This document shows, one piece after another, positions 1,769-12,113 of a stretch of DNA of 64,000 nt (position 1 is its first letter; each line of letters opens with the position of its first letter). The translations under genes were made by a program, and so were the position numbers. The stretch is from NCBI RefSeq assembly GCF_044324875.1, contig NZ_CP172185.1; one strand, 5' to 3'. Source of the DNA: Escherichia coli. Lineage in GTDB: Bacteria; Pseudomonadota; Gammaproteobacteria; Enterobacterales; Enterobacteriaceae. The notes beneath the pieces are model-generated. The model saw nothing but the letters and a program-made list of their open reading frames with translations. It was not told the origin of the DNA and made no database searches.

Positions 1769-3990
1769 GCTGTAATAAATAACTGACCCAATACGACATT
1801 CAGCTTAATAAATACATAAGGGTCGATTCTTATATGCCAGCAATGGCAGGGATTCGCACAACCTTAAAACAGCAATGAGGTTTATCAATGAGCACTGATA
1901 AAGAAACTTTTGCGCTATATTGCGAAGCTAAAAATGACAAAGTCAGAAAACGCCTTGGGATTAAAGGTGGTTTTTACTGGACTACAGCAAAAAAATTATC
2001 TGTTGCCATCTCCCGCTGCATTACCGCAATGGATGATAACGATTATGATGAAGACGACTTTAAAAAACCTGTTCGCGTCCATTTGCCCGTTGTTGATGAC
2101 CTTCCACCGGAAGGCGTGTTTGATACCGAATTCTGTAACCGGTATGAAAAAGGCGGCGAAGATGGCATCACAATGATATTTATCGCGCCTCCGCCATCCG
2201 CGCAGGACAAACCAGCCAGCACTGACAACACCAATGTTAATGGCGAAGACATGACTGAGATTGAGGAGAATATGCTTCTGCCGGTTTCAGGTCAGATTCT
2301 GCCTGTTCGCTGGCTGGCGCAACACGGCGGCGAAAAACCAGTAACGCACGTTTCGCGGGATGAACTGCGCTCATTACATAACGCACAGGAAGAAAAACTT
2401 CCCGCCGTTACCGCGCTGGCCATCTCAAATAAAGCAGCGCAACTCGAACCGCTGGAGATTCGGGATTTGTACAAACTGGTGCGGGACACTGACAAAGTTT
2501 TTCCCGCTCCCGTAAATTCAGACCTGGGACTGATGACCTCCTTCATCGAAGCATACCTGGACGCTGACTACACTGATCGTGGTCTGCTTACAAAAGAGTG
2601 GATGAAAGGAAATCGTGTTTCTCGCATCAGTCGCACACCATCCGGCGCTAACGCTGGCGGCGGTATTCTTACCGATCGCGGCGAAGGTTTTGTGCATGAT
2701 AATGCGTCAATGGCATTCGATGTTGCTACAGGAAAACTGGCTCGTTCGATGGATGTGGATATTTACAGCATGCATCCTTCACATACCAGACGTGTTAACG
2801 AAATTATCGCAGAAAATGATCCCTGTTTCTCCGTCTTCCTTAAGGCTTTTCTGAACATGCCAGGCGGGATGGATTATTCCCGCGCCATCGTGGTTGCCTC
2901 CGTGAAAGAAGCACCGGTTGGTATAGAGGCTATGCCCCACCGCGTCACCGAATACCTGAATAAAGTGCTGACCGAAACCGATCATGCCAACCCTGATCCG
3001 GAAATCGTGGATATTGCCTGCGGTCGTTCCTCTGCACCAATGCCGCAGCGTGTAACAGAAGAAGGAAAACAGGATGATGAAAAAAAACCGCAACCGTCTG
3101 GCGCAATGGCAGATGAACAGGCAACTACTAAAACAGTGGAACCGGATACAACTGAACATCATCCGGACACGCAGACGCTGGATGCTCGGCCGCAGGTGAA
3201 TTCTGTTGATGCGAAATATCAGAAACTGCGGGCAGAACTCCATGAAGCCCGGAAAAACATTCCGCCCCAAAATCCTGTCGACGAAGACAAATTGCTGGCA
3301 ACCTCTCGCGGAGAATTTGCTGAAGGGATTAGCGACCAGAATGATCCGAAATGGGTGAAGGGGATTGAAACCCGCGATTCTGTGAACCAGAATCAGCAAG
3401 AAACGGAACAGAACGACCAGAAAGCGGAACAAAACAGCCCAAATGTGCAACGAAAAGAGCCAAAAGCGAAACAATCCGAACCAGTAGCGCAACAGGAACC
3501 GGAAAAAGTCTGCACCGTCTGCGGTCAGAGCGGTGTCGACAACTGTCCTGATTGTGGCGTGGTGATGGGCGACGCAACATACCAGGAAATGTTCGATGAA
3601 GAGAATCAGCCTGAAGTTCAGGAAAATGATCCAGAGGAAATGGAAGGCTCTGCGCATCAGAACAAGGAGAACTCTGGCGGCAATCAGCATCATGCCAGCG
3701 ATAGTGAAACTGGCGAGACGGCAAATCCCTTAATTAAGATAACCAGTCATCACAAATATAAGTCCACAAGCAAAACGTGGTATCACCTGATGATCGACCT
3801 TGAAACAATGGGAACCAACACCAATGCACCCATAGTAGTTATTGGTGCGGTTTTCTTCGACCCGGAAACAGGGGAAATCGGGCCGGTATTTTATATCGTT
3901 ATCAGCCTGACTGACGCAATGAATACAGGGGCTGTTTGAACCGCCCCGGGAATCCTGGAGACTAAACTCCCTGAGAAAGAGGTAAACAGA

Positions 3991-4317
3991 ATGACTAAAA
4001 ATACTCGTTTTTCCCCCGAAGTCCGTCAGAGGGCGATTCGTATGGTTCTGGAAAGTCAGGGCGAATATGACTCACAGTGGGCGGCAATTTGTTCCATTGC
4101 CCCAAAGATTGGCTGTACACCGGAGACTCTGCGTGTCTGGGTACGCCAGCATGAGCGGGATACCGGAGGCGGTGATGGCGGGCTCACCACCGCTGAACGT
4201 CAGCGTCTGAAAGAGCTGGAACGTGAAAATCGTGAACTGCGCCGCAGTAACGATATCCTTCGCCAGGCTTCCGCTTATTTTGCGAAGGCGGAGTTCGACC
4301 GCCTCTGGAAAAAGTGA
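3991..4317 (+). CDS. IS629 transposase OrfA (108 aa)
   Basis: Recognised IS3-family OrfA sequence; stop overlaps orfB start in ATGA. Confidence 0.9.
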
Positions 4318-5204
4318 TGCCACTGCTGGATAAGCTGCGTAAGCTGTACGGGGTCGGACCGGTATGCAGTGAACTACATATTGCCCCGTCAACGTATTAC
4401 CACTGTCAGCAACAGCGACATCATCCGGATAAACGCAGTGCCCGTGCGCAGCGCGATGACTGGCTGAAGAAAGAGATACTGCGCGTATACGATGGGAATC
4501 ATCAGGTATACGGTGTGCGTAAAGTCTGGCGTCAGTTGTTACGGGAAGGAATCAGGGTAGCCAGATGTACAGTGGCGCGCCTCATGGCGGTTATGGGACT
4601 TGCCGGTGTTCTCCGGGGTAAAAAGGTCCGCACTACCGTCAGCCGGAAAGCCGTTGCCGCAGGCGACCGCGTAAACCGTCAGTTTGTGGCAGAACGTCCT
4701 GACCAGTTGTGGGTGGCTGATTTTACTTACGTCAGCACATGGCAGGGGGTCGTCTATGTGGCGTTCATCATTGATGTGTTTGCCGGATACATCGTGGGGT
4801 GGCGGGTCTCATCGTCTATGGAAACGACATTCGTGCTGGATGCTCTGGAGCAGGCGTTATGGGCCCGTCGACCGTCCGGCACAGTCCATCACAGTGATAA
4901 AGGTTCTCAGTATGTATCGCTGGCCTACACACAGCGGCTTAAGGAAGCCGGATTACTGGCATCAACAGGAAGTACTGGTGACTCGTATGACAACGCGATG
5001 GCGGAGAGCATCAATGGCCTTTACAAAGCGGAGGTAATACACCGTAAGAGCTGGAAAAACCGGACAGAAGTGGAGCTGGCCACACTCACGTGGGTGGACT
5101 GGTATAACAATCGACGATTGCTGGAAAGGCTGGGCCATATCCCACCGGCAGAAGCAGAAAAAGCTTATTATGCTTCCATCGGAAACGATGATCTGGCAGC
5201 CTGA
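4314..5204 (+). CDS. IS629 transposase OrfB (296 aa, DDE integrase-like catalytic domain)
   Basis: IS3-family OrfB; overlaps orfA by 4 nt. Confidence 0.9.
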
Positions 5205-5706
5205 GTTCACAGATAAAACACTCTCCAGGAAACCCGGGGCGGTTCAGTTCCTGATGGTGGCACCATCGAATGGTGGCTGAAGCAGTCCAGCGAAGCCAGA
5301 GCTGCCATTTTAACTGACCAGGTAAAAATGAAAGATGCCCTTTTGCGTTTTCGGGAATTCGTCAATGAACACTCCGATGAAAAATTCGTTCAGGTGTGGG
5401 GTAATGGCGCAACGTTCGATAACGCAATTTTGCGCACCTCATACGAACGTCTGGACATCCCCTGTCCGTGGCATTACAGCAACGATCGTGATGTACGCAC
5501 AATCGTTGAGATGGGGAAAATCACAGACTTCAATGCCAGAAGCGTAATTCCATTCGAAGGCGTGCGCCATAATGCTCTGGATGACGCTCTTCACCAGGCA
5601 AAATACGTAACAGCCGCTATACAAAAACTGATCCCGAATCAGGCTGATTTTTAATGTTCAACAGTCGCCAGTTGTCGTTGCTATTCTGCAACTGGCGCGT
5701 TCCGGA

Positions 5707-5985
5707 GTGATAGCCATGAGCGAACAGTACCTGATAACGCTCGATGAGTGGAAACCAAAACGGTTCAGTCTCCCAATAACAAACACTACCCTGGTGAAAT
5801 ATGGAAAACTAGGATACATCGTTCCAAGACCACAAAAAATTCGTGGGCGTTGGCTGATAGATCGCCGGGCAGTATTTGTTGGGCCAGGTGAAACAGGAAT
5901 TGCGCCGGAAATTCATACTGGCGATGATGATGCACTGAAGGAGATTTTAACTCATGTCACCGAGGCCACGAAAAAACAGCACTGA
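5707..5985 (+). CDS. xis: Prophage excisionase-like protein (92 aa)
   Basis: Small basic ORF directly upstream of and overlapping the integrase start by 32 nt. Confidence 0.6.
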   Translation: MIAMSEQYLITLDEWKPKRFSLPITNTTLVKYGKLGYIVPRPQKIRGRWLIDRRAVFVGPGETGIAPEIHTGDDDALKEILTHVTEATKKQH

Positions 5986-7072
5986 CGTAGCCGGTCTTTA
6001 CGAAAAGTTTGATCGCAGAACTGGCAGGGTTTACTACCAGTATAAAAACCCTGTGACTGGAAAATTTCACGGTCTCGGAACAGACAAATGTAAGGCAGAA
6101 AAAATCGCTTCCACAGCCAATCAGCGAATAGCTGCAGCAGAAGCTGAATATTACATGCGCAAAATTGATGAAAGTCCGTCAGCAACAAAACGTCGGGGTA
6201 TCAGATTAAAGGCATGGGTTGAACGATATCTGAAAATACAGGACACACGACTAAAAAATGGAGATATTGCAGCTACAACCCACAAAGAAAAAGCCCGAAT
6301 GGCTGCATACCTGGTTTCCCGTCTGGGAAACCACCCATTGAAAGAACTGGAAGTAAGAGACTTTGCATTGATACTGGATGAGTGGCTGGATAAAGACATG
6401 GTCAGCACGGCGAGAGTAAACCGTGGATTATGGGTTGATATTTATAAAGAAGCACAGCATGCAGGGGAAGTTCCTCCCGGATGGAATCCTCCGGAGGCTA
6501 CCCGTAAACCGATCCCTAAAGTAAGCAGAGCCAGACTCACCCTGGAAGACTGGCAAAAAATTTACAATGCAACGCCTGAAAGGCACTTTATTCGTAACGC
6601 AATGCTTCTTGCAATTGTTACTGGTCAGCGCCGTGATGACATTTGCCACATGCGTTTTTCAGATGTGTGGAACGAACACTTGCATATCACCCAGGGAAAA
6701 ACCGGAATGCGTCTGGCGTTACCGCTTACACTCCGCTGTGATGCCATTGGGATAACGTTAAAAGAAGTTATTGATGGATGCCGAGACAGAATATTAAGTC
6801 CATACCTAATCCATAGTCGGCACCAGAAACAACCAAAACCGATGAGTAAAGACAACCTGAGCGACTACTTTGCCAAAGCACGGGATCTGGCTGGGATAAT
6901 TCCACCAGCAGGAAAAACTCCTCCCACATTTCATGAACAACGCTCTCTATCAGAACGGCTGTACCGTACGCAGGGTATCGATACAAAAACATTACTGGGA
7001 CATAAAATCCAGGCAACCACCGATCGCTATAACGATACCCGAGGTCAGGAATGGGTTAAGTTGGTTATTTGA
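5954..7072 (+). CDS. int: Prophage tyrosine integrase (372 aa)
   Basis: C-terminal catalytic signature HxxR (HEQR) and terminal Tyr (DRYNDTR); N-terminal arm-binding-like region; lies at the prophage/host junction. Confidence 0.9.
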   Translation: MSPRPRKNSTDVAGLYEKFDRRTGRVYYQYKNPVTGKFHGLGTDKCKAEKIASTANQRIAAAEAEYYMRKIDESPSATKRRGIRLKAWVERYLKIQDTRLKNGDIAATTHKEKARMAAYLVSRLGNHPLKELEVRDFALILDEWLDKDMVSTARVNRGLWVDIYKEAQHAGEVPPGWNPPEATRKPIPKVSRARLTLEDWQKIYNATPERHFIRNAMLLAIVTGQRRDDICHMRFSDVWNEHLHITQGKTGMRLALPLTLRCDAIGITLKEVIDGCRDRILSPYLIHSRHQKQPKPMSKDNLSDYFAKARDLAGIIPPAGKTPPTFHEQRSLSERLYRTQGIDTKTLLGHKIQATTDRYNDTRGQEWVKLVI

Positions 7073-7238
7073 CAAACACCATATGGAATATCCGTCACCA
7101 TCTCAGGAAAAAAGTGTTGTAAAATGCGTGGCCTTGTTTTGGGGAAAAGTTTTGGAGAGATTTTGGAGAAAGGAAAAAATTGAATAAATTCAAAATCCTG
7201 AAAGTGCTCCACCTTATGAATAAAAAGGTGGAACTCGA
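7073..7238 (+). promoter_or_regulatory. attR region with three direct repeats TTTTGGRGA (7137-7145, 7150-7158, 7161-7169) and a short open frame ending ...NKKVELE* that overlaps the potC start like the potB 3' end
   Basis: Repeats read from sequence; the phage/host boundary must lie in this interval because int ends at 7072 and potC starts at 7239. Confidence 0.5.
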
Positions 7239-8033
7239 ATGATCGGTCGACTGCTTCGCGGCGGTTTTATGACCGCTATCTACGCGTACCTGTATATCCC
7301 AATCATTATTTTGATTGTGAACTCCTTTAACAGCTCGCGCTTTGGCATCAACTGGCAGGGTTTTACCACCAAATGGTATAGCCTGCTGATGAACAACGAC
7401 AGCCTGTTACAGGCAGCGCAGCATTCACTAACAATGGCGGTGTTTTCGGCGACGTTTGCTACGCTTATCGGTTCACTGACGGCAGTTGCGCTGTACCGTT
7501 ATCGCTTTCGTGGTAAGCCGTTCGTTAGCGGAATGCTGTTTGTGGTGATGATGTCACCAGATATCGTGATGGCGATTTCGCTGCTGGTGCTGTTTATGCT
7601 GCTGGGTATTCAGCTTGGCTTCTGGTCGCTGCTGTTCTCGCATATCACCTTCTGCCTGCCATTTGTGGTGGTGACAGTGTATTCGCGCCTGAAAGGTTTT
7701 GACGTGCGAATGCTGGAAGCGGCGAAAGATCTCGGTGCCAGCGAATTTACCATTCTGCGAAAAATCATTCTGCCACTGGCAATGCCAGCGGTAGCGGCGG
7801 GCTGGGTGTTAAGCTTTACCCTGTCGATGGACGATGTAGTAGTTTCTTCGTTCGTCACCGGACCAAGCTATGAAATTCTGCCGTTAAAAATTTATTCGAT
7901 GGTCAAAGTCGGCGTATCGCCGGAAGTTAACGCGCTGGCAACCATATTACTGGTGCTGTCGCTGGTGATGGTAATTGCCAGCCAGCTTATTGCTCGTGAT
8001 AAAACGAAAGGTAACACAGGGGACGTTAAATGA
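7239..8033 (+). CDS. potC: Spermidine/putrescine ABC transporter permease PotC
   Basis: 264-aa ORF recognised as E. coli PotC. Confidence 0.95.
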   Translation: MIGRLLRGGFMTAIYAYLYIPIIILIVNSFNSSRFGINWQGFTTKWYSLLMNNDSLLQAAQHSLTMAVFSATFATLIGSLTAVALYRYRFRGKPFVSGMLFVVMMSPDIVMAISLLVLFMLLGIQLGFWSLLFSHITFCLPFVVVTVYSRLKGFDVRMLEAAKDLGASEFTILRKIILPLAMPAVAAGWVLSFTLSMDDVVVSSFVTGPSYEILPLKIYSMVKVGVSPEVNALATILLVLSLVMVIASQLIARDKTKGNTGDVK

Positions 8034-9076
8034 AAAAATGGTCACGCCACCTGCTCGCGGCGGGTGCTCTGGCACTGGGCATGAGCGCCGCTCACGCCGA
8101 TGACAACAACACGCTGTATTTTTACAACTGGACCGAGTACGTGCCACCAGGACTGCTTGAACAGTTCACCAAAGAAACCGGTATTAAGGTTATCTATTCG
8201 ACTTACGAGTCGAACGAAACCATGTATGCCAAGCTGAAAACGTACAAAGACGGTGCCTATGACCTGGTGGTTCCTTCAACCTATTACGTCGATAAAATGC
8301 GTAAAGAAGGGATGATCCAGAAGATCGACAAGTCGAAGTTAAGCAATTTCAGCAACCTCGATCCAGACATGCTCAATAAGCCGTTTGACCCGAATAACGA
8401 CTACTCCATTCCGTATATCTGGGGTGCGACGGCGATTGGTGTTAATGGTGATGCGGTGGATCCCAAATCCGTTACCAGCTGGGCCGATCTGTGGAAGCCT
8501 GAGTACAAAGGCAGCCTGCTGCTGACCGACGATGCCCGTGAAGTGTTCCAGATGGCACTGCGTAAGCTGGGCTACTCCGGTAACACCACCGATCCGAAAG
8601 AGATTGAAGCTGCATACAACGAGCTGAAAAAACTGATGCCAAACGTCGCGGCGTTTAACTCCGATAACCCGGCGAACCCGTATATGGAAGGCGAAGTTAA
8701 CCTCGGCATGATCTGGAACGGTTCTGCTTTCGTTGCACGCCAGGCGGGTACGCCAATTGATGTGGTGTGGCCGAAAGAAGGCGGCATTTTCTGGATGGAC
8801 AGCCTGGCGATCCCGGCAAATGCCAAAAACAAAGAAGGCGCGCTGAAATTGATCAACTTCCTGCTGCGCCCAGATGTGGCAAAACAGGTTGCTGAAACTA
8901 TCGGTTATCCAACGCCAAACCTTGCGGCGCGTAAGCTGTTAAGTCCGGAAGTGGCGAACGATAAAACGCTCTACCCGGATGCTGAAACCATTAAAAATGG
9001 TGAATGGCAGAATGACGTTGGCGCAGCCAGCAGCATTTATGAAGAGTATTATCAGAAGCTGAAAGCAGGACGTTAA
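8030..9076 (+). CDS. potD: Spermidine/putrescine periplasmic binding protein PotD
   Basis: 348-aa ORF with signal peptide, recognised as PotD. Confidence 0.95.
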   Translation: MKKWSRHLLAAGALALGMSAAHADDNNTLYFYNWTEYVPPGLLEQFTKETGIKVIYSTYESNETMYAKLKTYKDGAYDLVVPSTYYVDKMRKEGMIQKIDKSKLSNFSNLDPDMLNKPFDPNNDYSIPYIWGATAIGVNGDAVDPKSVTSWADLWKPEYKGSLLLTDDAREVFQMALRKLGYSGNTTDPKEIEAAYNELKKLMPNVAAFNSDNPANPYMEGEVNLGMIWNGSAFVARQAGTPIDVVWPKEGGIFWMDSLAIPANAKNKEGALKLINFLLRPDVAKQVAETIGYPTPNLAARKLLSPEVANDKTLYPDAETIKNGEWQNDVGAASSIYEEYYQKLKAGR

Positions 9077-9133: not shown

Positions 9134-9595
9134 ATGAGTCAGGACAGTAGAGTTTTCTTTCGTATATTCCTCGGTATCGGTCTGGTACTGATCCTCATTT
9201 CTGTTGTTGTCTTTTATAACCAGTTCACCTATAGCAAAGACGCGATTCATACTGAAGGCGTCATTGTTGATACCGTCTGGCACTCCAGTCATTCTCATCG
9301 CACGGGTAAAAATGGTTCGTGGTATCCCGTCGTTGCCTTTCGACCGACGCCTGATTACACGCTAATTTTCAATTCGAGTATCGGCAGCGATTTTTATGAA
9401 GACAGCGAAGGCGATAAAGTTAATGTTTATTATTCTCCAGGGCATCCTGAAAAGGCTGAGATAAATAACCCGTGGGTTAATTTTTTTAAATGGGGGTTTG
9501 TCGGCATTATGGGCGTTATTTTTATCGCCGTCGGTTTATTAATCAGTATGCCCTCCTCTAAAAAGTCACGCAGGAAACGGAAGTCCCGTCCATGA
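9134..9595 (+). CDS. ymfA: Inner membrane protein YmfA (DUF3592)
   Basis: Recognised E. coli YmfA; start chosen to give 153 aa (track ORF starts at 9092). Confidence 0.8.
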
Positions 9596-10294
9596 AAAAA
9601 ATCATAATACTGCTCAGTTTACTGATACTGCTGCCTCTGACAGCAACCAGTAAGCCCTTAATCCCAATAATGAAGACACTTTTTACGGATGTTACAGGTA
9701 CTGTACCGGATGCTGAGGAGATTGCGCGGAAAGCGGAGCTTTTTCGTCAACAAACCGGGATTGCGCCGTTTATCGTGGTTGTACCTGACGTTAATGAAGC
9801 AAGCTTCAGGCAAAATGGCAAAGCGATGCTGGCGCATGCGTCATCTTCATTGAGTGATGTAAAAGGCAGCGTCCTGTTACTTTTTACCACCCGCGAGCCA
9901 CGGTTAATTATGATAACCAACGGCCAGGTTGAAAGCGGTCTGGACGATAAACATCTCGGCCTTCTGGTTGAAAATCACACTCATGCTTATTTACATGCGG
10001 ACCTCTGGTATCAGGGAATCAATAATGCATTGGCTGTTTTACAAGCACAGATATTAAAACAACCGACGCCGCCACTGACATATTATCCGCATCCCGGACA
10101 ACAGCAGGAGAATGATCCTCCCGGCAGTACCACGATATTAGGTCTTTTTGCCTGGGCAGTTGCATTCATCTTCTTTACTGCATTTTTTTACTACACGACG
10201 CGCCTTAATTATGCATTAAAGTTTGCAGTGGCGATGACTATTGCCAATATGGGTTATCAGGCTTTATGTTTGTACATCGGGTAATGACTCCAAC

Positions 10295-10798
10295 TTATTG
10301 ATAGTGTTTTATGTTCAGATAATGCCCGATGACTTTGTCATGCAGCTCCACCGATTTTGAGAACGACAGCGACTTCCGTCCCAGCCGTGCCAGGTGCTGC
10401 CTCAGATTCAGGTTATGCCGCTCAATTCGCTGCGTATATCGCTTGCTGATTACGTGCAGCTTTCCCTTCAGGCGGGATTCATACAGTGGCCAGCCATCCG
10501 TCATCCATATCACCACGTCAAAGGGTGACAGCAGGCTCATAAGACGCCCCAGCGTCGCCATAGTGCGTTCACCGAATACGTGCGCAACAACCGTCTTCCG
10601 GAGCCTGTCATACGCGTAAAACAGCCAGCGCTGGCGCGATTTAGCCCCGACATAGCCCCACTGTTCGTCCATTTCCGCGCAGACGATGACGTCACTGCCC
10701 GGCTGTATGCGCGAGGTTACCGACTGCGGCCTGAGTTTTTTAAGTGACGTAAAATCGTGTTGAGGCCAACGCCCATAATGCGGGCAGTTGCCCGGCAT
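10295..10798 (-). CDS. insB: IS1 InsB reading frame (expressed as InsAB' by frameshift)
   Basis: 167-aa ORF recognised as IS1 InsB. Confidence 0.9.
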
Positions 10799-10992
10799 CC
10801 AACGCCATTCATGGCCATATCAATGATTTTCTGGTGCGTACCGGGTTGAGAAGCGGTGTAAGTGAACTGCAGTTGCCATGTTTTACGGCAGTGAGAGCAG
10901 AGATAGCGCTGATGTCCGGCGGTGCTTTTGCCGTTACGCACCACCCCGTCAGTAGCTGAACAGGAGGGACAGCTGATAGAAACAGAAGCCAC
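10717..10992 (-). CDS. insA: IS1 InsA
   Basis: 91-aa ORF recognised as IS1 InsA. Confidence 0.95.
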
Positions 10993-11159
10993 TGGAGCAC
11001 CTCAAAAACACCATCATACACTAAATCAGTAAGTTGGCAGCATCACCTGTACATCGATAATAGCTTTGCGATTACCAGAATATCGCCGCTCTGGGCAGGG
11101 CTGATTGGTGTCTGTACGTTTATTGCCGCGTTGTTATTGACGAGTAAACGGTAAAAGAG

Positions 11160-11290
11160 GCAGTAAAGTGTGCGTTTATTATGCCGGATGCGGCGCGAAC
11201 GCCTTATCTGGCCCACAAAACCCGCAAATTCAATTAATTGCGTCCCCTTGTAGGCCTGATAAGCGTAGCGCATCAGGCAATGCTTCCTGC
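11160..11290. repeat. REP/BIME-type palindromic units between ycfZ and cobB
   Basis: GCCGGATGCGGCG...CGCCTTATC and GTAGGCCTGATAAGCG...CGCATCAGGC motifs. Confidence 0.7.
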
Positions 11291-11291
11291 T

Positions 11292-12113
11292 TTATAAGCC
11301 CTTCAGCAACTTTTCAACAAACTCTGGCACCACCTGGCTTGCCGGGCCGTAATATTTCTCGGCAAATTCATTACCGACCTGGCTTGGTTCAAGATTCAGT
11401 TCCACGGTGTGTGCGCCATGCAGTTTCGCTTCGTGAACAAACCCAGCCGCCGGATAAACATGCCCTGATGTACCAATGGCAATGAAAATATCGGCCATTG
11501 ACAACGCCATATAAATTTCATCCATGCCGAGTGGCATTTCGCCAAACCAAACGACGTGCGGGCGCAAGGGTGCCGGGAACTGGCAACAATGGCATTTATC
11601 TTCTGGCGTAACGTCTCCGGTCCAGTCGAGAACCTGACCACTTTGCGAACAGCGAACTTTCAGCAGTTCCCCATGCATATGAATGACATTGGTATTACCT
11701 GCGCGTTCATGCAGGTTGTCGATATTCTGCGTCACCAGCAAAAAGCGATCGCCGAGGGCGTCTTGCAGTTTAGCCAGCGCAAGATGCGCGGCGTTAGGCT
11801 GAATTTCTGGCTGCTGTAGCTGTCGACGACGGGCGTTATAAAACGCTTGCACCAGTTCAGGATCGCGATCGAAACCTTCCGGCGTTGCCACATCTTCAAC
11901 CCGATGTTCTTCCCACAGGCCATCTGCGGCGCGAAAGGTACGAATACCTGATTCCGCAGAAATCCCTGCCCCTGTCAGTACGAGTACTCTTGGTTTTTCC
12001 ATTGCTTCCGGCACCACTTTATCTCTGAAAAAAATACGCTGACGCAAACGCTCGCGCAGACGGCGTTTATTTTTACGAAAACGACTTAACCGATGACCCC
12101 GACGCGACAGCAT
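11292..12113 (-). CDS. cobB: NAD-dependent protein deacylase (sirtuin) CobB
   Basis: 273-aa ORF recognised as CobB. Confidence 0.95.

Follow-up and report, generated by a model that had tools for sequence, protein, structure and literature searches.

The window analyzed here, i.e. the whole 64-kb stretch of Escherichia coli DNA, contains the genes potD (8030-9076), ymfA (9134-9595, plus strand) and ycfZ in this order, followed by cobB (11292-12113), a sirtuin deacetylase gene on the minus strand that converges on ycfZ, and by nagK, which is likewise on the minus strand. The K-12 arrangement potD-ymfA-ycfZ with a convergent cobB is kept in the window, as seen from the open reading frames, the annotation and a collinear alignment. 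The upstream partner of ycfZ, ymfA, is intact and encodes a DUF3592 membrane protein according to Pfam, and its stop codon overlaps the ycfZ start codon (ATGA). ycfZ itself is interrupted in its 3' part by an IS1 element. Between the stop codons of ycfZ and cobB (11165-11290) lie sequences that we take to be REP-type palindromes (GCCGGATGCGGCG...CGCCTTATCTGGCC; GTAGGCCTGATAAGCGTAGCGCATCAGGC). No REP hairpins were reported by an inverted-repeat search with a 7-nt seed at 11150-11300, and a search for structured RNA between 9000 and 12200 gave no Rfam hits at the gathering score.

To the left of these genes, the first ~7.2 kb of the window is prophage, with e.g. a Rha/Ash regulator and a RecE-like exonuclease. 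K-12 homology reaches no further left than 7217, which is 22 nt ahead of the potC start; the prophage therefore occupies the 3' end of potB. Directly upstream of potC, in the region 5954-7239, a lambda-type integrase with Arm-DNA-bind and Phage_integrase domains was found. The prophage exonuclease gene (context 1888-5654) is split by a 1310-bp IS3-family element at 3937-5246, which comprises orfA (3991-4317) and orfB (4314-5204) with rve domains and is bounded by 25-nt inverted repeats (TGAACCGCCCCGGGAATCCTGGAGA) that are 92% complementary. We take this inverted repeat to resemble that of IS629. The N-terminal part of the split exonuclease (1888-3939) ends after 50 of the 177 positions of its Rv2179c-like domain, and the remainder of the gene appears to lie at 5328-5654.

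The IS1 element in ycfZ is IS1A-like, occupies 10280-11047 (exactly 768 bp) and carries its transposase genes on the minus strand; a script check found it to be the only IS1 copy in the 64-kb window. The repeat finder placed the right inverted repeat (IRR) at 10280-10302 (GGTAATGACTCCAACTTATTGAT) and the left inverted repeat (IRL) at 11025-11047 (reverse complement GGTGATGCTGCCAACTTACTGAT). These 23-nt terminal repeats are imperfect, being complementary at 18 of 23 positions (78%), and the right-hand terminus of the element, up to 11047, reads ...ATCAGTAAGTTGGCAGCATCACC. On the minus strand, insA (10717-10992) consists of 91 codons and a stop, with a GTG start at 10992, and is overlapped in the -1 frame by the insB' reading frame (10295-10798). 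The programmed -1 frameshift motif TTAAAAAAC (A6C) lies in the insA frame at 10735-10743 on the same strand, and a fusion of insA and insB' by a -1 shift at A6C yields an InsAB' protein of 232 aa without stops. In this protein, Pfam identified the domains Zn_ribbon_InsA (8e-21), HTH_Tnp_IS1 (1.7e-28) and DDE_Tnp_IS1 (3.5e-78), and the NCBIfam equivalog transpos_IS1 was matched with 245 bits at a cut-off of 100. At the nucleotide level, 765 of 768 bases are identical to K-12 IS1A, with three substitutions, and copies identical at 100% occur in four E. coli records, where RefSeq annotates them as 'IS1-like element IS1A family transposase'. IS1-like sequence was found in 4,969 out of 5,426 complete E. 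coli genomes, at a median of 11 places per genome. This copy shows all the hallmarks of IS1 that are open to in-silico testing, i.e. length, repeats, frames, domains, target duplication and near-identity to IS1A. Judged by its sequence, it has all requirements intact and looks like a standard, fully functional copy.

Both IS1 ends are abutted by the 9-mer TGTACATCG, whose left (10271-10279) and right (11048-11056) copies, located with the repeat finder and a script, are identical at 9 of 9 positions. For one fixed pair of positions, the chance of such a match is 4^-9 (~4e-6), and on both strands of the window the 9-mer was found at those two places only. The junction sequences are TTTGTACATCGGGTAATGACTCC (left) and GCAGCATCACCTGTACATCGATAATAG (right). 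An earlier note on this DNA had described a 768-bp IS1 in ycfZ with a perfect 9-bp duplication, which was confirmed by the element at 10280-11047 and its flanking 9-mers. Its account of the reading frame, i.e. an interruption of ycfZ after codon 229, with one residue added and a stop inside the IS1 end, was verified in all parts. The truncated ycfZ ORF (9592-10284, plus strand) comprises 229 native codons, a glycine codon and TAA, and encodes 230 aa. Codon 229 is ATC (10276-10278), and codon 230 (G|GG, Gly) spans the junction, the insertion having taken place after the first base of this codon; the G is the last base of the duplication, the GG comes from IS1 and the new TAA stop at 10282-10284 lies inside the IS1 end.

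Downstream of the element, the 3' remnant of ycfZ (11056-11154, plus strand) consists of 32 codons and the native stop at 11152-11154. It reads GAT AAT ... CGG TAA, the first codon taking its G at 11056 from the repeat. The insertion adds 768 + 9 = 777 = 3 x 259 nt, and the remnant is therefore in frame with the 5' part, from which it is separated by 13 stops. The last 32 codons had also been reported as in frame by the earlier note, with a start at 11057; this is the first non-duplicated base, the codon itself beginning at 11056. Translated, the remnant gives DNSFAITRISPLWAGLIGVCTFIAALLLTSKR, which matches the C-terminus of K-12 YcfZ at all 32 residues and contains a loop, the third transmembrane helix and a TSKR tail. 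Translation of the remnant on its own was considered and rejected, as in-frame ATG and GTG codons are absent from it and TTG/CTG codons come only late.

When IS1 and one copy of the repeat are removed in silico, a 786-nt ORF encoding a 261-aa YcfZ is restored. This exact protein is found on 739 contigs in a public collection, and four complete genomes, in which this stretch is annotated as ycfZ, contain the restored empty site (400 bp) contiguously and at 100% identity. K-12 aligns to both flanks of the insertion, with a 9-nt overlap at the target. The simple transposition proposed in the earlier note is thereby borne out: excision restores an exact existing allele, and the K-12 flanks overlap by the length of the duplication. 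Non-identical flanking 9-mers, or a downstream frame not matching the YcfZ C-terminus, had been named there as grounds for abandoning this reading. Since the 9-mers are identical and the downstream frame agrees with K-12 throughout, a simple insertion is the sole reading that fits. Mechanistically, the InsAB' transposase would be produced through a -1 frameshift at the A6C motif, and the two strands of an AT-rich part of ycfZ would have been cut at positions offset by 9 bp, the TGTACATCG duplication arising when the gaps were filled.

In RefSeq, no complete E. coli genome (5,426 in all) has the IS1 insertion at codon 230 of ycfZ. The 62 'full-coverage' matches obtained from these genomes were rejected, since each is joined from three pieces and has its IS1 at another site. 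The exact 230-aa truncated YcfZ has the NCBI accessions WP_395762506.1 / XJR43447.1 and is encoded on a 5,752,694-bp E. coli contig. There, the product of the IS-truncated ycfZ (9592-10284) is filed under WP_395762506.1 as an ordinary 'TPM domain-containing protein', and not as a disrupted gene. The truncated protein is also encoded in Logan assemblies from four sequencing runs, namely ERR1512459, two more samples and ERR14764776, whose independence as confirmation is uncertain, as some of their reads could come from the strain whose complete genome is the source of the window. Contigs of ERR1512459 and the two samples are 100% identical to the window over 3715 bp, and that of ERR14764776 is 99.97% identical. 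These contigs end 27-29 nt into IS1, so it is the left junction that they share with the window. The ERR14764776 assembly has, together with the same IS1 junction, a ymfA that lacks 1 nt of an A5 run (L003 ~2717; ~9308-9312 in the window), which shortens the called product to 76 aa. This may be either a real frameshift or a sequencing or assembly error.

When 13 kb of the right flank were compared with the complete genomes, the best match reached only 99.0% identity, and the source lineage is therefore poorly represented among them. Because no complete genome exceeds 99.0% over these 13 kb, the insertion is undatable against a sister lineage. The earlier note had regarded the transposition as probably recent, and in an evolutionary sense this is supported: the 3' remnant is undecayed, copies identical at 100% to the intact IS1 exist elsewhere, none of the 5,426 complete genomes contains the insertion, and the flanks of its carriers are 99.97-100% identical. 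Given the undecayed remnant, the intact IS1 and the narrow distribution, the data fit a recent, clonal event, and the insertion marks a small clone.

By sequence, fold and synteny, the interrupted gene is the ycfZ orthologue, with an incomplete product. In the literature, ycfZ occurs in lists and screens only, with no established function. It is an entry in e.g. a virulome list and a CRISPRi placental-barrier screen, as well as among mutations in phage-resistant APEC and in an ASKA screen. The restored and the truncated YcfZ alike contain the Pfam TPM domain (PF04536) at residues 41-151, with 29.3-29.7 bits at a gathering cut-off of 22.1. Using the N-terminal domain as a query, Foldseek placed TPM domains on top, namely 7tbr (TM 0.79), AtTLP18.3, BA41 and Psb32. 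A PDB sequence search with YcfZ gave no match at E <= 1, the domain being placed there by fold search only, and no family match was found among the NCBIfam profiles. Relatives of YcfZ at E <= 1e-3 amounted to 43 clusters (50% identity) among 1.84 billion representatives, many of them fragments; since only 43 clusters reach this threshold, the YcfZ subfamily is very narrow.

Hydropathy analysis of YcfZ indicated a signal peptide at residues 1-20, strong hydrophobic segments at 181-203 and 238-257, and a weaker one at 208-229. An AF2 model (16-sequence alignment, pLDDT 79.6) has helices at 182-197, 204-229 and 240-258, and IS1 is therefore predicted to cut YcfZ exactly where the second membrane helix ends. 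The truncated protein retains 229 out of 261 residues (88%), from the signal peptide through the TPM domain, which is periplasmic, to the second membrane helix. What it lacks is everything beyond this helix: a loop of 10 residues, the third transmembrane helix (~240-258) and the basic tail at the C-terminus. The complete three-helix C-terminal anchor, which ends in the conserved PLW...TF...KR segment, is thus absent from the truncated product, its third helix and tail being encoded only in the untranslated remnant. In full-length YcfZ homologues of 29-46% identity, the C-terminal motif PLW..IG..TF.A..L.T.(K/R)R is conserved. The side on which the C-terminus of a membrane protein lies can be assigned with the positive-inside rule, from which we infer that the native YcfZ C-terminus is cytoplasmic and that the truncated one would be periplasmic. 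Because a conserved segment is lost and the C-terminus would now be periplasmic, the truncated YcfZ is probably destabilized or non-functional, i.e. a loss-of-function or strongly hypomorphic allele. The earlier note implied that function is abolished by the truncation, which goes beyond the evidence, and as a counterweight 88% of YcfZ is kept, including its only recognized domain.

The same simple IS1 insertion could also be functionally near-neutral, if YcfZ can do without the third helix and remains active with the TPM domain and two membrane helices. We regard this as possible, if rather doubtful. It would agree with the retention of the TPM domain and of 229/261 residues, with the acceptance of the truncated ORF as an ordinary protein by the NCBI pipeline, and with the persistence of the truncated allele across several sequenced isolates. 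Furthermore, IS1 is tolerated elsewhere at the locus, near ycfZ codon ~60 and in ymfA, which suggests that strains can do without this locus in any case. On the other hand, conservation of the third helix and the basic tail extends to homologues of 29% identity, and removal of an odd-numbered last helix flips the side of the C-terminus, whereby membrane proteins are often destabilized. Also considered was that the structure only resembles a simple insertion, having arisen by misassembly or having been left behind by a rearrangement that IS1 mediated (a deletion, an inversion or a composite transposon). IS copies are classic sites of misassembly, and also of neighboring deletions without target duplications (PMC11708052), but in this case the duplication is perfect, both flanks are collinear with K-12 with the 9-nt overlap, excision gives back the exact common allele and the window contains one IS1 copy. 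With the same left junction found in separately retrieved short-read assemblies as well, an artefact or a rearrangement is extremely improbable.

Polar effects of the insertion on other genes are not expected, because ycfZ is the last gene in its unit and cobB converges on it. A consensus scan for outward promoters found none at the IRR end and, at 11034-11061 on the plus strand, a promoter-like hybrid site directed outward from IS1, which is a consensus match only. Its -35 hexamer TTGGCA (11034-11039) lies in the IRL and is followed, after a 16-nt spacer, by the -10 hexamer GATAAT (11056-11061) in the repeat and flank. In PMC8764528, which cites Prentki et al. 1986, the IS1 inverted repeat is described as having an outward -35, with hybrid promoters arising where a well-spaced -10 is available. 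The case described there is the activation of afaA in ST131 by an IS1 hybrid promoter. The outward -35 is likewise present here, 16 nt from a -10-like hexamer, but unlike in the afaA case there is no gene to activate downstream, only a start-less 98-nt remnant and the antisense strand of cobB. A regulatory role, in which the IRL -35 and the flank -10 form a hybrid promoter directed through the ycfZ remnant and REP region and antisense to cobB, is weighed between the documented creation of such promoters by IS1, together with a score of 10/12 matches that makes this the best site in the scan, and several points against it. The region has a total of five promoter-like sites versus 3.4 +/- 1.8 expected by chance from shuffled sequences, so that the match is no evidence of function; native ycfZ transcription already proceeds in the same direction; and the cobB stop is ~235 nt away from the site, with REP-like sequence in between. 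We consider such a role very unlikely. That the hybrid promoter is active antisense to cobB, or that the two-helix YcfZ, its C-terminus then being periplasmic, has an altered activity, and that either was selected in this IS-bearing clone with its 5.75-Mb genome, is likewise highly improbable.

We are highly confident in the simple insertion, i.e. that a single intact IS1A-type IS1 transposed into the 3' part of ycfZ in the ancestor of a small clone, leaving a truncated product that is probably destabilized or non-functional. The observation is real and was read correctly, and the event is an ordinary, routine mutation. Truncation of a gene by IS1 together with a 9-bp duplication is textbook material, the allele is already in public databases, and the insertion bears on no open question and has little value beyond bookkeeping. 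As a clean clonal marker, it would allow identification of the lineage, by PCR of the junction or with a k-mer that spans TGTACATCG|GGTAATGAC. It also illustrates that public annotation can hide IS-truncated genes, as annotation-based comparisons of gene content would miss the ycfZ truncation. Finally, it provides a natural C-terminal truncation allele for the study of the uncharacterized YmfA/YcfZ pair.

In E. coli K-12, YcfZ (b1121) is listed as a 'putative inner membrane protein' and belongs to a TPM-domain / YgcG-like family. The YcfZ of the window shares 237 out of 262 residues with it, the last 55 being fully identical, and differs from it in belonging to a divergent 261-aa allele class and in missing residues 230-261. 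At the nucleotide level, 88 of 789 positions (11%) differ between ycfZ of the window (9592-10279 + 11056-11154) and of K-12 (L006 4480-5268), and 20 of these differences are packed into nt 541-600, which encode the first membrane helix. The last 55 codons have five synonymous and no non-synonymous differences, and 25 amino-acid differences are found upstream of them; the low divergence at the 3' end could stem from recombination rather than from purifying selection. Among E. coli core genes, ycfZ is unusually divergent. The 400-bp ycfZ site is matched at 80-90% only by 3553 of 5394 records, which suggests, from sequence identity, two deep allele classes, and both recombination and diversifying selection are possible causes of this divergence.

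IS1A of E. coli K-12 MG1655 (NC_000913.3 19796-20563) has the same length of 768 bp as the IS1 of the window, as well as the inverted repeats, the insA/insB' layout and the A6C site, and the typical 9-bp target duplication is common to both copies. The window IS1 differs from it by the three substitutions and by its other chromosomal site. A candidate hot spot for IS1 at ymfA/ycfZ was rejected, as 5 out of 5,426 genomes carry an insertion there against ~15 genome-instances expected from a rough estimate (median 11 places x 1.25 kb / 5 Mb x 5,426), i.e. there is no enrichment. The other E. coli IS1 insertions in the ymfA-ycfZ-cobB-nagK region stem from the same element family and represent independent events at different sites. 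Strain 51489 has an IS1 in the 3' end of ymfA, which is a different variant of the element (96.4% identical), while strains 30EVA1, 10034940-2, 15.03CC and R2 carry an IS1 in ycfZ near codon 60, and in the B/BL21/REL606 lineage the IS1 is situated in nagK.
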